Of a DNA stretch of 58,014 nucleotides, positions 19,096 through 53,922 are shown in pieces. Made by a program: the position numbers and the translations under genes. This DNA comes from Candidatus Magasanikiibacteriota bacterium. Lineage in GTDB: Bacteria; Patescibacteriota; Patescibacteriia; Magasanikbacterales; 2-02-FULL-50-9b. Each line of letters starts with the position of its first letter. Positions within the stretch are counted from its first letter, which is position 1. Under the pieces are notes generated by a model, which worked only from the letters and a program-made list of their open reading frames with translations, searched no databases and was not told the DNA's origin. The stretch covers positions 1 to 58,014 of the forward strand of contig CALRDW010000001.1 in NCBI GenBank assembly GCA_943355025.1. The letters run 5' to 3'.

Positions 19096-19223
19096 GGAAC
19101 TCTCCGGTTCGCAAAAGATGCGAGCCGGCCCGGGCAGTCGGAATGTCCGCTGGACATTCCTTGGTTCCTGGGCCTGCGCACGCTCGGCCCGCCTTTGGCC
19201 CCTTCGAGTCCCTTCCAGTCCGC
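19096..19223 (-). repeat. tRNA-Asp 3'-associated structured element with a 21-bp inverted copy of the tRNA 3' end
   Basis: 19203-19223 is the exact reverse complement of 19265-19285; three further hairpins. Confidence 0.8.
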
Positions 19224-19230
19224 GTCCAAA

Positions 19231-19260
19231 GAAAAAACCACCCTTGCGGGTGGATTTTTT
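19231..19260 (-). terminator. Terminator after tRNA-Asp
   Basis: AAAAAA.CCACCC-GCAA-GGGTGG-TTTTTT on the minus strand. Confidence 0.8.
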
Positions 19261-19262
19261 CA

Positions 19263-19339
19263 TGGCGGACTGGAAGGGACTCGAACCCTCGACCTTCCGC
19301 GTGACAGGCGGACGTTCTAACCAGCTGAACTACCAGTCC
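19263..19339 (-). tRNA. tRNA-Asp (GTC)
   Basis: Cloverleaf GGACTGG/CCAGTCC, anticodon loop CT-GTC-AC, GGTTCGAGTCC, encoded CCA. Confidence 0.97.
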
Positions 19340-19425
19340 AAGTGAGGCTGACAATGAGTGTTTACACTCGATTGTCATGCCGAGCGCGGACGCCGTAGTT
19401 ACGAATGTAACTACCAGTCCAGCGC
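19340..19425 (-). repeat. tRNA-Asp 5' leader element with duplicated tRNA 5' end
   Basis: 13-bp direct repeat 19328-19340/19409-19421 inside a long hairpin; second hairpin with a GTAAAC loop. Confidence 0.75.
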
Positions 19426-19491
19426 GGTACTACGTAAATTTTTTTTGCACCGCGTGTTCAGTTTGTCATGCTGAGAACGCTCAAAAGGCCT

Positions 19492-19848
19492 TTACGCCTT
19501 TACAACCTGCACTTTTTTAACAATGCCTTCAAATACCTTTGGGTATTTCTGTGCGAGTTCTGCCAAAACCTTACGATTCAACGTGATGTTTGCTTTTTTC
19601 AAAGCATCCATGAAGCGTGAATAGGTCATACCGTACTGGCGAACAGCTGCGTTGATCGAAATGTGCCAAGCTGCGCGGAACACAGCTTTCTTTTTGCGGC
19701 GAGCCTGCATGGAGTTGACGCCAGAGTGAAGAATGGCTTCCTTTGCCATTTTTACACGGTTCTTGCGACCCCACATGAAGCCTTTTGTATTTTTGAGCAG
19801 TTTTGTGCGCTTTCGTGCGCGAACTGTTCCTCGTTTAACGCGTGGCAT
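19492..19848 (-). CDS. rplT: 50S ribosomal protein L20
   Basis: MPRVKRG...FR..W...INAA.R..G..YS.FM..LKK..I.LNRKVLAELA. Confidence 0.98.
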   Translation of the reverse strand: MPRVKRGTVRARKRTKLLKNTKGFMWGRKNRVKMAKEAILHSGVNSMQARRKKKAVFRAAWHISINAAVRQYGMTYSRFMDALKKANITLNRKVLAELAQKYPKVFEGIVKKVQVVKA

Positions 19849-19859
19849 ATATCAAACAA

Positions 19860-20054
19860 TTAATTCTGGATTGAGTTCACAATCAACTTGGTGTGTGTAC
19901 CAGCAAGTGATTTATCGGTGCGTTTCTTGCGGGTGGTGTTACCGCTTTCACGGCCATTAAAATGGTCCTGGCCTGCTGCACGGTGAATAACCTTCCCTGT
20001 ACGTGTTACGCGGAAGCGCTTTGCAATCATTTTTTTCGTTTTCATCTTACCCAT
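19860..20054 (-). CDS. rpmI: 50S ribosomal protein L35
   Basis: KMKTKK..AKRF.VT.TGKV; lies between infC and rplT. Confidence 0.95.
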   Translation of the reverse strand: MGKMKTKKMIAKRFRVTRTGKVIHRAAGQDHFNGRESGNTTRKKRTDKSLAGTHTKLIVNSIQN

Positions 20055-20115
20055 AGTCTGCAAAATAAGTGACAGGAGTATATCAGTAAACCCGCACCGC
20101 CGTCAAGCTGGCACC

Positions 20116-20664
20116 CTATATCTTGGTGAGCAGGGCAATAATCTTGTTTTCTTGCTTGGTTGGGGCCTGTTCGATTCTGAGAGGCACGGCTGTTTTGAGC
20201 TCAATAATAAAGGCATTCACAACCTTAAACGCGTTTTCAACGAACTGTCGCTCGCGACCGCGCAAAATGAGCTCTACCTTAACCTTGTTGCCATCCTCAA
20301 AAAAGCCTTTGGCCTGGTTGAGTCTGAGCTCCTTATCATGTTCACCAATACGGAGCGACAAACGAACACCCTTAACTTCGGTTTCCTTTTGCTTCTTTTT
20401 TTGGATGCGCTCCTCCTTATCTTTTTGATATTTAAATTGACCGTATTCCGTAATTTTTACAACCGGTGGCAATGCTTCCGGATTGATTTCAATGAGATCA
20501 AGCCCTCGTTCGTCCGCGAGTTTGAGCGCGTCCGCGATTGACATAACTCCGACATGCGCGCCAGCATCATCAATAACACGCACCTCTTCGGCACGAATCA
20601 TTTCGTTGAAGCGAATTTTGATTTTTGCTACCTCTGGTTTAAATCGTTTTCGGGCAATACGCAT
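20116..20664 (-). CDS. infC: Translation initiation factor IF-3
   Basis: NE.IRA.EVRVID, GLDL.E..P.A.PPV.KI, G.KVKV...RGRE. Confidence 0.97.
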   Translation of the reverse strand: MRIARKRFKPEVAKIKIRFNEMIRAEEVRVIDDAGAHVGVMSIADALKLADERGLDLIEINPEALPPVVKITEYGQFKYQKDKEERIQKKKQKETEVKGVRLSLRIGEHDKELRLNQAKGFFEDGNKVKVELILRGRERQFVENAFKVVNAFIIELKTAVPLRIEQAPTKQENKIIALLTKI

Positions 20665-20752
20665 ATGTGTGGCTGAGTATAGCGAATAGCGGGCGATTGC
20701 GCAAGGGTGCCTCCGCTTGCATGGCGTCCCGCGTGCTGCTAAACTACTGTCC

Positions 20753-21391
20753 ATGTTTGATCTTGTTTCTATTATTAAAGCAGGTGGCTATTTTGCGGTC
20801 TTCGGAATTATATTTGCGGAGTCTGGTCTTTTGATTGGGTTTTTTCTTCCCGGTGACAGCTTACTATTTACCGCTGGATTTTTATCATCGCAGGGCTACC
20901 TTGACATTCGTATTCTTGCACCGCTGTGTTTTATTGCAGCGCTTTCTGGCGATTCGTTTGGCTATGCAATTGGCAAACGGCTTGGCCCAAAAATTTTTAC
21001 ACGCGAAGACTCGCTTATTTTTAATAAAAATCACGTCGCACGCGCACAAGCCTTTTATGAACGTCACGGTGGAAAAGCGATCACTCTCGCCCGATTTACA
21101 CCCGTTATCCGCACGTTTGCACCGATTGTTGCGGGCGTTGGTAAGATGCGATATTCAGCTTTTTTATTTTACAACACACTCGGCGCGCTTATCTGGGCTG
21201 TTGGCGTCAGTCTCGCTGGTTATTTCCTCGGCAACCGCTTTCCGGGAATCGATCATTATTTGTTACCCATAATTTTGGTCATAATGCTTACGTCAATCAT
21301 GCCGGGCATTATTCACATTGTGCGTGACGGAGCAGACCGTGCAAAAATAAAAGCGGGGATCAAAAAAATATTTTCAGGTAAGGAAAAATAA
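20753..21391 (+). CDS. DedA/VTT family membrane protein
   Basis: [29 protein letters not shown]. Confidence 0.93.
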
Positions 21392-24287: not shown

Positions 24288-25661
24288 TTAGAATGAATGT
24301 TTGGTGTCGAGACTGCGGAAGTTCGCTGTGTTTTCGTTGAAAAATAATTGTACCACACCGGTTGGGCCGTTTCTGTGTTTTGCAATATGAATTTCTGCGA
24401 TGTTGCGTTCGTCCTGCGGAATTTCGTCTGCTCGATAATTTCGGTCAACAGCTTTGCGATAAATGAACATTACGATATCCGCATCTTGTTCAATACTACC
24501 ACTTTCACGGAGGTGCGCCAGTTTTGGAATTGCTGGTTTGCTTTGTTCAACGGCGCGCGAAAGCTGCGAGAGCGCAATGACGGGAATATTGAGCTCGCGC
24601 GCCAAACCCTTAAGACCACGAGTGATTTCTGCGACTTCTTGAACGCGATTATCCGAATTGCCGCCAGACTTTGATTCCATCAGTTGCAGATAATCAACGA
24701 TGACCATCCCAAGACCGTTTTCCATTTGAAGGCGACGCGCTTTAGTTCTGATTTGTGTAATGTTGAGTGACGCCGTGTCATCGATGAACAACGGCGCATC
24801 CGAGAGCGTGCCCATCGCGTGGCCGAGACGTGCAAAATCATCCGAGTCTTCACGTTCTGCAAGATTACCGGTTCGCAGTTTCCACAAATCAATGTTTGAT
24901 TCCGCACAGAGAAGTTTATCCACGAGTTGCTCCTTTGACATTTCAAGAGCAAAAATTCCAACAGGGATTTGATGTTTTGTTGCAGCAATACGCGCCATGT
25001 CAAGAACCAAACTTGTTTTACCAACTGATGGACGCGCAGCAATAATAATGAGATCTGATTTTTGAAAACCAGAAAGCATATTGTCGAGCGCGGGGAAGCC
25101 AGTTGGAATGCCACGAAGTTTTCCGCGCTCCCTATGCAATTCATCAATGCGATCAAACGCGGTAACAATTACATCACGAATCGGAACAAATGCAGTTCCA
25201 CCGAATGATGATGACACGCCGTAAATTTGTTGTTGCGCCTTGTCGAGTACATCTTCGATCTCATCCGCTTCTTCAAACGCAAGGCGCGTAATTGTTTCCG
25301 CGGCTTTGAGCAATCGGCGAAGAACCCCTTTACGATGCACAATGTGCGCATAGTTGACCACGTGCGCGGCAGTCGGGACAGAGTTTGTAATGGATGCGAG
25401 CGCTGTTGTCCCACCGACAAGGTCTAATTGATTTTTATCGCGCAGACGATTGCTCAAACTGAGGAGATCGATAGGTTCGTGTTTGAGCGAGAGTTCGCTG
25501 CACGCTTCAAAAATTAATTTGTGTGCCTCACGATAAAAATCGTTGGGATCTATGATGTCGTGGATTTTAAAAATCGCTTCTTTGTCAATTAAAATAGCAC
25601 CGAGCAGAGATTGTTCCGCTTCGTCATTGTGTGGTGGAATTCGGCCGAGAGGGTCTGCCAT
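24288..25661 (-). CDS. dnaB: Replicative DNA helicase
   Basis: PPH..EAEQ, AARPSVGKT, VDYLQL, LSQLSR, LRESGSIEQDAD, AKHRNGP; no intein. Confidence 0.98.
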   Translation of the reverse strand: MADPLGRIPPHNDEAEQSLLGAILIDKEAIFKIHDIIDPNDFYREAHKLIFEACSELSLKHEPIDLLSLSNRLRDKNQLDLVGGTTALASITNSVPTAAHVVNYAHIVHRKGVLRRLLKAAETITRLAFEEADEIEDVLDKAQQQIYGVSSSFGGTAFVPIRDVIVTAFDRIDELHRERGKLRGIPTGFPALDNMLSGFQKSDLIIIAARPSVGKTSLVLDMARIAATKHQIPVGIFALEMSKEQLVDKLLCAESNIDLWKLRTGNLAEREDSDDFARLGHAMGTLSDAPLFIDDTASLNITQIRTKARRLQMENGLGMVIVDYLQLMESKSGGNSDNRVQEVAEITRGLKGLARELNIPVIALSQLSRAVEQSKPAIPKLAHLRESGSIEQDADIVMFIYRKAVDRNYRADEIPQDERNIAEIHIAKHRNGPTGVVQLFFNENTANFRSLDTKHSF

Positions 25662-53644: not shown

Positions 53645-53702
53645 AACGAGGGACTTGCAAAAAATTGGGTTTTAGATATAATGATGCAGTTCAAGTTCGT
53701 TT

Positions 53703-53849
53703 GACCCACAGATCCTTCGCAGTTCGCAGAATTGCTCGGAACTTCTGGACTTCGACCCGTAGATCCTTCGCAGCCTTCGGCTGCTCGGGGCTACCGGGTC
53801 TCGCTCGCGAGAAAACCCGTACGTAAACGTCCAGTTTTCTCACTCACTC
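53703..53849 (+). repeat. tRNA-Lys 5' leader element with sense and antisense copies of the tRNA 5' end
   Basis: GACCC..AGATCCTTCGCAG twice; GCTACCGGGTC (53790-53800) complementary to tRNA nt 1-11. Confidence 0.75.
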
Positions 53850-53922
53850 GACCCGGTAGCTCAGCTGGTAGAGCAGTAGCCTTTTAAGCTAACGGTCGTG
53901 GGTTCAAATCCCACCCGGGTCA
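53850..53922 (+). tRNA. tRNA-Lys (TTT), CCA not encoded
   Basis: GACCCGG/CCGGGTC acceptor, loop CT-TTT-AA, GGTTCAAATCC. Confidence 0.95.

Follow-up and report, generated by a model that had tools for sequence, protein, structure and literature searches.

A Two-Hairpin Cassette Carrying Sense and Antisense Copies of the Adjoining tRNA Start in tRNA Leaders of Candidatus Magasanikbacteria

The tRNA-Asp Leader

A leader containing both a sense and an antisense copy of the start of its own tRNA precedes a tRNA-Asp gene of an uncultured Candidatus Magasanikbacteria bacterium (assembly GCA_943355025.1). The gene lies on the minus strand of the window, which denotes here the whole stretch of 58,014 nucleotides (nt) that was analyzed and represents the first 58 kb of contig 1 of a genome of 988,540 bases (33 contigs, 44 tRNA genes, 98% complete). 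The leader is built from two hairpins and two linkers, together referred to as the cassette, and sits between the rplT mRNA and tRNA-Asp, with infC, rpmI, and rplT (19492–20754, minus strand) located directly upstream on the same strand. Its components, in the sense of the tRNA, are as follows.

19340..19422, minus strand: Asp cassette, whole, as matched by the covariance model R1 described below (39.2 bits, expectation value (E) 1.8e-5; this copy is absent from the R1 seed)
19409..19421, minus strand: hairpin 1, 5′ arm TGGACTGGTAGTT, an exact 13-nt copy of position −1 plus tRNA nt 1–12
19401..19408, minus strand: hairpin 1, loop of 8 nt
19388..19400, minus strand: hairpin 1, 3′ arm AACTACGGCGTCC, an imperfect antisense of tRNA nt 1–12 (11 matches with gaps in the arm alignment)
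19381..19387, minus strand: linker 1, GCGCTCG, the Asp form of the family linker TCGCTCG / TCCGTTCG
19347..19380, minus strand: hairpin 2, 34 nt, with a G-UAAA-C tip and one bulged C in the 5′ strand
19340..19346, minus strand: linker 2, CTCACTT, unpaired in the predicted native fold and ending at the tRNA 5′ processing site
19263..19339, minus strand: tRNA-Asp(GTC), the gene behind the leader (ARAGORN; Rfam tRNA model, 71 bits)

The initial annotation, made from the letters of the window, had described a 13-nt duplicate of the tRNA start, a loop, an antisense copy, the linkers, and a hairpin with a GTAAAC loop, and every one of these items is present on the minus strand. The second occurrence of TGGACTGGTAGTT is the start of tRNA-Asp itself (19340–19328, minus strand); the two sense copies lie 81 nt apart with no plausible gene in between, and they constitute the only exact matches of this 13-mer in the window, where 0.02 would be expected from 100 shuffles. 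The arms of hairpin 1 pair with each other, leaving a small internal loop, and the module is predicted at −17.4 kcal/mol (RNAfold). The same annotation had placed an element of identical order, with the same three linker motifs, before a tRNA-Lys. This too was borne out: the window contains exactly two instances of the ordered motif CGCTCG..GTAAAC..CTCACT, one preceding tRNA-Asp and one preceding tRNA-Lys(UUU) (53802–53848), and 0/100 of its shuffles contain one. An assembly artefact had also been considered. Contigs of two public runs (X1 and X2) span positions 19100–19600 with 0 differences each, possibly from the source sample and so not as independent proof, and contigs from runs X3 and X4 gave no span across the Asp leader.

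Copies in the Same Genome

Inspection of the 160 nt upstream of all 44 tRNA genes identified five tRNAs with the cassette layout: Asp(GTC), Lys(UUU), Lys(CUU), Thr(GGU), and Val(UAC). The Asp leader is a reduced copy of a cassette of ~95–100 nt, in which hairpin 1 is followed by a pyrimidine-rich linker of the UCGCUCG type, hairpin 2, and a second linker of the CUCACUC type that reaches the first base of the tRNA. In the fuller copies, hairpin 1 forms a rod in which the 5′ arm is followed by CUUCGCA, an inner stem-loop, UGCUCG, and the 3′ arm antisense to the tRNA start. The copy before tRNA-Lys(UUU), likewise in the window, displays the complete arrangement together with a decayed additional module.

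53655..53682, plus strand: promoter-like site (TTGCAA, 16 nt, TATAAT), 20 nt upstream of the first Lys(UUU) module; consensus match only
53703..53753, plus strand: decayed second hairpin-1 module without hairpin 2, upstream of the Lys(UUU) cassette (−12.6 kcal/mol)
53752..53849, plus strand: full cassette before tRNA-Lys(UUU) (R1, 86 bits)
53754–53762, plus strand: its 5′ arm, with the inner CUUCGCA..UGCUCG hairpin next
53791–53800, plus strand: its 3′ arm, antisense to the tRNA at 10/10 positions
53801–53807 and 53843–53849, plus strand: its linkers, with hairpin 2 between them
53850..53922, plus strand: tRNA-Lys(UUU) (tRNA search and Rfam tRNA model)

A consensus scan also placed a promoter-like site 27 nt upstream of the first module at Lys(CUU) and none at tRNA-Asp. 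Given these upstream sites, both Lys cassettes would lie inside the predicted transcript. Upstream hairpin-1 modules additional to the cassette are present at Lys(UUU) and at Val(UAC), the latter in the spacer after tRNA-Leu(GAG).

The specificity of the copies was examined against mismatched combinations of tRNAs and upstream regions. An antisense copy matching the first 10 nt of the tRNA at 10/10 positions, no more than 160 nt upstream, is found at both tRNA-Lys genes and in 0/1884 mismatched pairings, while a 10/10 sense copy of the tRNA start is found upstream of tRNA-Asp and tRNA-Ser(UGA) as compared with 0.37% of control pairings. The exact 10-nt copy at tRNA-Ser(UGA) (C12 at 32057) lies ~34 nt upstream of the gene and is unaccompanied by cassette motifs. 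A 9/10 copy of its own start is located immediately upstream of tRNA-Glu(CUC) on C1. Separately, the linker-2 motif (TTCACTAC, CTCACTT) closes the leaders of tRNA-Ile(GAU) (C12:6491) and tRNA-Glu(UUC) (C7:18057), the former also showing a 5′-arm remnant ~36 nt upstream; both leaders may be decayed cassettes.

Family Model and Distribution

A covariance model (R1) was constructed from an alignment (A2) of 15 units from which the Asp copy was left out. In its own genome, R1 retrieves exactly five places, which include the Asp leader and are all directly 5′ of tRNAs. Of the 151 genomes of the order that were searched, 12 gave matches. All seven genomes of the Candidatus Magasanikbacteria family to which the window belongs are represented, with 5, 3, 6, 4, 8, 5, and 9 copies (40 in total), and weaker matches occur in 5 of the 144 order genomes outside the family. 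R1 gave 0 matches in 150 further genomes of the phylum. The initial annotation had named the absence of the motif from other tRNA loci as the result that would speak against it; the five copies in this genome and 40 across the family, recovered by a covariance-model search of the kind it had proposed, show the opposite.

A strict sequence pattern retrieved the element in 3 of 60 relatives, with 0 hits for the reversed control pattern. In a public collection holding one genome per species, the pattern returned 17 stretches, two of which are real and come from Candidatus Magasanikbacteria metagenome-assembled genomes, directly 5′ of tRNAs; the remaining 15 adjoin no tRNA. Metagenome contigs yielded 31 stretches, 23 of them without an adjacent tRNA. 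The eight real ones have a GC content of 0.46–0.51 and lie directly 5′ of tRNA-Val(GAC), -Ile(UAU), or -Lys(UUU). Among the families of Rfam, only tRNA reaches its gathering threshold in the window, and the Lys leader has no match at E up to 10. Neither Rfam nor the literature searched was found to describe such a leader.

Position and Arms That Follow the Local tRNA

At the loci examined, 52 of 60 R1 matches end no more than 2 nt from a tRNA start on the same strand. Three of the other eight are upstream tandem units, two touch the tRNA start (one being cut by a contig end), and three are not at a tRNA. Two of these three belong to genome G015, where they precede starts resembling those of open reading frames (ORFs) and have no Rfam family beside them. 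Both G015 matches (L072 and L082) score ~27 bits and consist of a hairpin-2-like part followed by a common ACTTGATTATG and the apparent ORF starts. The tRNAs served comprise Lys (CUU, UUU), Ile (UAU, GAU), Val (GAC, UAC, CAC), Thr (GGU, CGU, UGU), Asp, Pro(UGG), Phe, Gly(CCC), and Arg(GCG).

In hairpin 1, the closing stem consists of nt 1–7(–12) of the tRNA itself paired with their complement, in agreement with the earlier statement that the arms match the tRNA of each locus. Nucleotides 1–7 are reproduced perfectly by the 5′ arm in 14/52 copies and by the 3′ arm in 8/52, as compared with 0% and 0.2%, respectively, when leaders are set against noncognate tRNAs (2552 pairings). Mean conservation amounts to 8.8 of 12 positions for the 5′ arm and 8.3 of 12 for the 3′ arm. 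The arms also follow changes in the tRNA: in G001, where tRNA-Asp starts with GGACC instead of GGACT, both cassette arms are changed likewise. Acceptor changes are similarly tracked at Lys(CUU) in G005 and, by the 5′ arm only, at Lys(UUU) in G006; some copies do not track them. Near position 6–7, 1–2 nt are missing from many 5′ arms whose 3′ counterparts complement the tRNA perfectly, and in other copies the situation is reversed. Two further regularities were considered and dropped, namely that both arms are never perfect in the same copy (0/52 versus ~2 expected, not significant) and that the 3′ arm is kept better than the 5′ arm, given the two means.

The boundaries of the copied segment are also alike. 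Among the 42 units counted, the 3 nt before the tRNA are CTC in 21, TAC in 8, and TTC in 4. Directly ahead of the 5′ arm, 24/42 copies read TTC or CTC and at least 27/42 end in TC, a context that resembles the one before the tRNA itself.

The feature is confirmed as real, multicopy, structured, and tRNA-specific. That it reflects a chance resemblance or an assembly artefact is so improbable, given the shuffle controls, the comparisons of own with other tRNAs, the recovery of the Asp copy by a model seeded without it, the lack of any match in 150 unrelated genomes, and the contigs of two runs that cross the site without differences, that this explanation can be set aside.

Structure, Covariation, and Predicted Folds

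Both hairpins covary strongly. In a model-based alignment of the 60 matches, 89.8% of the cells at paired positions hold standard pairs, as compared with 65.9% in shuffles and 38–46% when the partners are slid, and 30/30 pairs show changes on both sides. The helices forming hairpin 2 (helices 5–7 of the family structure) are paired at 86–93%, with every pair changed on both sides. The alignment was fitted to the model, which favors structure; the slid controls and the variety of the stems nevertheless argue for genuine maintenance of both hairpins. The tip of hairpin 2 conforms to G-YNNR-C, in forms that include UAAA, CAAG, CGAG, CACG, and UGAA. A simple palindrome extended around hairpin 2 was rejected, as the two linkers are not mutually complementary. 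Group II intron domain V, self-cleaving ribozymes, and T-box RNAs were also considered as structural relatives and gave no likeness by eye and no Rfam match.

In many copies of hairpin 2, a GC-rich tip is flanked by a 5′ strand rich in A and a 3′ strand rich in U. A terminator consensus scan flags hairpin 2 of Lys(CUU) (L001 161–174) and not those of Lys(UUU) or Asp, and a weak attenuator role for this hairpin is conceivable from its sequence.

The acceptor sequence is present twice in either sense within the precursor, which can therefore adopt two folds: a native fold, with hairpin 1 and the cloverleaf, and a swapped fold, in which the leader arms pair with the tRNA. In the own-genome precursors that allowed a valid comparison (Asp, Lys(UUU), Thr, and Val), the two are predicted to lie within ~5 kcal/mol of each other; the enforced-native value for Lys(CUU) was misregistered and unusable. 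Prediction gives the swapped fold as the most stable one for Lys(UUU), Lys(CUU), and Val(UAC). Among the predicted optima of 52 cognate precursors, 23 join the 5′ strand of the tRNA to the leader and 22 join it to the tRNA 3′ strand, whereas with noncognate leaders these pairings are found in 14/156 and 125/156, respectively. Such predictions ignore cotranscriptional folding and tRNA tertiary structure, and the two-fold behavior that they display follows from the design of the sequence, so that use as a switch is not thereby demonstrated.

Occupancy, Tandem Copies, and Mosaic Exchange

Occupancy by the cassette is patchy. Five of the 44 tRNAs of this genome carry one, and relatives occupy partly different tRNAs. 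A tRNA-Asp gene was located in six of the seven family genomes and has a cassette in five of them, with two units in G001, G004, and G006; G001 and G006 preserve the arrangement of rplT followed by cassette(s) and tRNA-Asp. In G002, rplT is followed by a plain hairpin and tRNA-Asp with no cassette. Three tandem hairpin-1 modules are present at one metagenome locus, and decayed modules occur.

The interiors of the cassettes have been exchanged as mosaics between tRNA loci. The nearest relative of hairpin 2 and the linkers resides at the same tRNA species in 14/48 copies and that of the hairpin-1 interior in 2/48, with identities of up to 100% across different tRNA loci. A case in point is provided by Ile(GAU) and Val(GAC) of G006, whose interiors are 100% identical and whose second hairpins are 96% identical, with 3′ arms nearly the same and 5′ arms each perfect to its own tRNA. 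At a single tRNA, Thr(GGU), linker 1 and hairpin 2 are of two subtypes in different genomes. Insertion boundaries were sought by comparing the Ile(UAU), Thr(CGU), Phe, Pro(UGG), and Ile(GAU) loci with those of relatives; the flanks at these loci could not be aligned and none was definable.

A Mirror-Image Cassette at tRNA 3′ Ends

A related element lies on the other side of tRNA-Asp, beyond its terminator, with the following features.

19238..19253, minus strand: bidirectional terminator-like hairpin between tRNA-Asp and the 3′ cassette
19100..19223, minus strand: mirror-image 3′ cassette, which also contains a decayed direct copy of the tRNA 3′ end
19203–19223, minus strand: 21-nt inverted copy of the 3′ end of tRNA-Asp
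19175–19185, minus strand: hairpin with a GAGCGTGCGCA loop
19140–19160, minus strand: second hairpin of the 3′ cassette

This 3′ element generally opens with an inverted copy of the tRNA 3′ end. Next come the hairpin with the GAGCGTGCGCA loop, another hairpin, and a direct copy of that 3′ end, often with a second terminator behind it. It is present at 10 of the 77 tRNAs examined, and in this genome it also follows Val(UAC) (C14, ~25570–25640). A 14/14 inverted copy of the 3′ end is found downstream of tRNA-Asp only among the 44 tRNAs.

Origin and Possible Roles

The explanation that we rank first, and hold tentatively, sees the element as a tRNA-linked repeat cassette, renewed through recombination with the tRNA gene, cotranscribed with it, self-folding, and removed by RNase P. 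Such a cassette would be generated and refreshed by duplication of, or recombination with, the adjoining tRNA gene, while its interior would be exchanged between tRNA loci. Once it is transcribed together with the tRNA, the two self-copies would pair as soon as they are made, which would keep both from competing with the real acceptor stem, and hairpin 2 with the 7-nt unpaired linker would keep the true cleavage site open. RNase P, whose RNA is encoded in the genome (C33:267–729; a 463-nt match to a 367-position model, implying extra sequence), would then remove the cassette and probably also cut at the pseudo-start, where the context is likewise TC|G. The host would need only that the cassette be harmless. 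As part of the same tentative explanation, the cassette would occupy the transcribed leaders of a changing subset of tRNAs in one Candidatus Magasanikbacteria family. The patchy occupancy, the tandem arrays, the decayed copies, the exchange of interiors, and the cassette-less tRNA-Asp of G002 all support this account. Two alternative routes to hairpin 1 were considered and rejected: snap-back copying at the tRNA 5′ terminus, as the axis of the hairpin lies after nt 12 and not before nt 1, and derivation of the 3′ arm from the tRNA's own 3′ half, as the arm also complements nt 8–12, unlike that half. Several observations weigh against a harmless repeat. The conserved unpaired motifs, the covariation, and the retention of the cassette in all seven family genomes (~1 Mb each) would be compatible with a host function as well. 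A cost should attach to a purely passive cassette, because 23 of the 52 minimum-energy folds with cognate leaders trap the tRNA 5′ strand. The loss of 1–2 nt near position 6–7 of the 5′ arm recurs at different tRNAs and looks selected rather than accidental. Finally, the 3′ arm is complementary to the tRNA at 10 or more of 12 positions in ~20/52 copies, and no mechanism that writes this antisense arm was identified.

The leading alternative is a two-state maturation switch operating on each tRNA, a reading that we consider possible and clearly less probable than a repeat. The precursor would comprise four matched strands (the 5′ arm, the 3′ arm, and the 5′ and 3′ strands of the tRNA): in the ON state, hairpin 1 and the cloverleaf would form and the leader would be single-stranded at the RNase P site, whereas in the OFF state the 3′ arm would pair with tRNA nt 1–12 and the 5′ arm with the tRNA 3′ strand, with a signal or the kinetics of folding setting the ratio and gating the supply of particular tRNAs. 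The near-isoenergetic states, the swapped optimum for both Lys and for Val, and the capture of the tRNA 5′ strand by cognate far more than by noncognate leaders would fit such a switch; two isoenergetic states are also automatic from duplicated helices, so that the predictions do not count as independent evidence, and they leave aside cotranscriptional folding and tRNA tertiary structure. Many 3′ arms are perfect to tRNA nt 1–11/12 where the 5′ arm has its 1–2-nt deletion, and the linkers are conserved and the hairpins covary, all in keeping with regulation, as is the modulation of bacterial RNase P by leader structure reported elsewhere (PMC9433436, PMC7897497). On the other hand, the two arms are conserved about equally, occupancy varies among close relatives, tRNA-Asp of G002 manages without a cassette, and no ligand-like pocket or sensor is evident. 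A broader version, in which the cassette is a built-in, tRNA-specific riboregulator whose decoy and anti-acceptor strands create two competing folds gating RNase P maturation, with the 3′ mirror cassettes obeying the same principle, is doubtful.

The exact position and orientation of the copies could instead point to a nonautonomous mobile element with site-specific insertion at the outer edges of tRNA genes, which would use an enzyme encoded elsewhere and acquire its arms from the target. Near-identical interiors at nonorthologous tRNAs of one genome, as at Ile(GAU) and Val(GAC) of G006, would fit such an element, as would the reach of the direct repeat 2 nt into the leader, visible as TC before most 5′ arms, and the counterpart at tRNA 3′ ends. 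We nevertheless regard it as unlikely. This genome, at 98% completeness, has 0 matches to PF01797 (Y1 transposase) and no TnpB-type nuclease, and a single tyrosine recombinase gene is encoded on a contig other than that of the window; moreover, the repeat lengths vary, empty and filled sites cannot be aligned so as to define insertion ends, and we know of no transposition chemistry that writes an inverted copy of its target. The initial annotation was right to view the leader as a shared element customized to its tRNA, as R1 recovers the Asp copy and 52/60 matches lie at tRNA starts; of the two origins that it offered, a folding switch and the footprint of an insertion, each has support and the data decide for neither. 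Least probable among the functional readings, and very unlikely in our view, is a role in trans for the ~95-nt two-hairpin RNA after its excision, for example as an antisense partner of the tRNA or its fragments or as a protein sponge. Cleavage by RNase P at both TC|G sites would release the cassette, and its 3′ arm is antisense to the tRNA, but that arm is buried in hairpin 1, and neither the linkers nor the inner motifs have a complement in the RNase P RNA of this genome. The product would resemble the small RNAs derived from pre-tRNA spacers of Escherichia coli. According to one account (PMC8144298), a fragment of a 3′ external spacer has a function, and repeat RNAs undergo processing and bind both Hfq and CsrA in vitro.

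Relation to Known Systems

The closest parallel is offered by the tRNA-linked repeats (TLRs) of E. coli. As portrayed in the same account (PMC8144298), 22 such repeats exist, the last 18–19 bp of each correspond to the 3′ end of the gene upstream, and no function is known for them; they reside in tRNA and rRNA operons (e.g., tyrT) in one to several copies per locus and are cotranscribed. The leader cassette likewise adjoins a gene in a tRNA unit (the tRNA start itself in 52/60 cases), copies the end of the adjacent gene, and occurs as one to several units. The 3′ cassette follows the TLR layout closely, with its second terminator and its direct copy of the tRNA 3′ end, a TLR trait that it shows in several loci. 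The differences are that TLRs are located downstream and carry 18–19 bp of the 3′ end, whereas the leader cassette is located upstream and carries 7–13 nt of the 5′ end; in addition, the leader cassette contains an antisense copy, which results in a replica of the acceptor helix, along with a second conserved hairpin and two conserved linkers. Rfam includes an RtT model, and the Rfam searches described above provide no sign of homology to TLR or RtT RNAs in the window.

Ordinary 5′ leaders that are removed by RNase P share with the cassette a location between a promoter-like site and the tRNA, an end at the RNase P site, and the presence of RNase P RNA in the genome. To our knowledge, sense and antisense copies of the first 7–12 nt of a leader's own tRNA have not been reported for them, nor has a sequence family spanning multiple loci. 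Repetitive extragenic palindromic (REP) sequences, their hairpin-forming doublets (REPINs), and bacterial interspersed mosaic elements (BIMEs) are also short, multicopy hairpin repeats with covarying stems and tandem arrangements. REPs are, however, scattered intergenically and do not copy their neighbors, whereas all five cassettes of this genome lie directly 5′ of tRNAs and the family as a whole has the cassette at tRNA starts only, and the Y1 transposase gene (PF01797) of REPIN systems with REP-associated tyrosine transposases (RAYTs) is missing here.

The t-elements of plant mitochondria are tRNA-like processing signals, that is, acceptor-like helices in a longer transcript at which tRNA-processing enzymes could cut. 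The cassette similarly presents an acceptor replica, placed at Asp between the rplT mRNA and the tRNA. A rod of ~13 bp comes after this replica, with no T-arm or T-loop; the module is unmatched by the Rfam tRNA model, and its helix copies one neighboring tRNA. The duplications left by integrases at attachment (att) sites also produce a direct repeat of part of a tRNA beside an intact gene. In the cassette, by contrast, the repeats are only ~80–100 nt apart with no integrase or cargo, the copied segment is the 5′ end, and an antisense copy and conserved hairpins common to several loci are added.

Implications

No counterpart of the cassette design was found in the RNA-family library or the literature searched. 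If the cassette is only a repeat, the tRNA-linked repeats of E. coli, unexplained since 1978, would have a richer, hairpin-forming counterpart on the 5′ side of tRNAs in streamlined uncultured bacteria, and the cassette would represent a clean case of DNA that recopies its neighbor in both orientations. If it is functional, it would constitute a natural leader that mimics or masks the acceptor stem of its own tRNA to control processing, a principle described as an engineered RNase P riboswitch. Were the riboregulator reading true, it would offer a way to tune individual tRNA supplies in organisms with almost no conventional regulators. For annotation, structured leaders of ~100–200 nt and pseudo-tRNA starts should be expected beside tRNA genes in these lineages, and R1 together with an alignment (A3) provides a starting point for a family description.

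Additional Features of the Genome

Four reverse-transcriptase-like matches are present in this ~1-Mb genome (C30:3582–4040, C24:7983–8288, and C13:915–1545). A nearly identical stretch of ~45 nt containing CGTTCGGGACGTTGTCAGA recurs on C2, C24, and C28.

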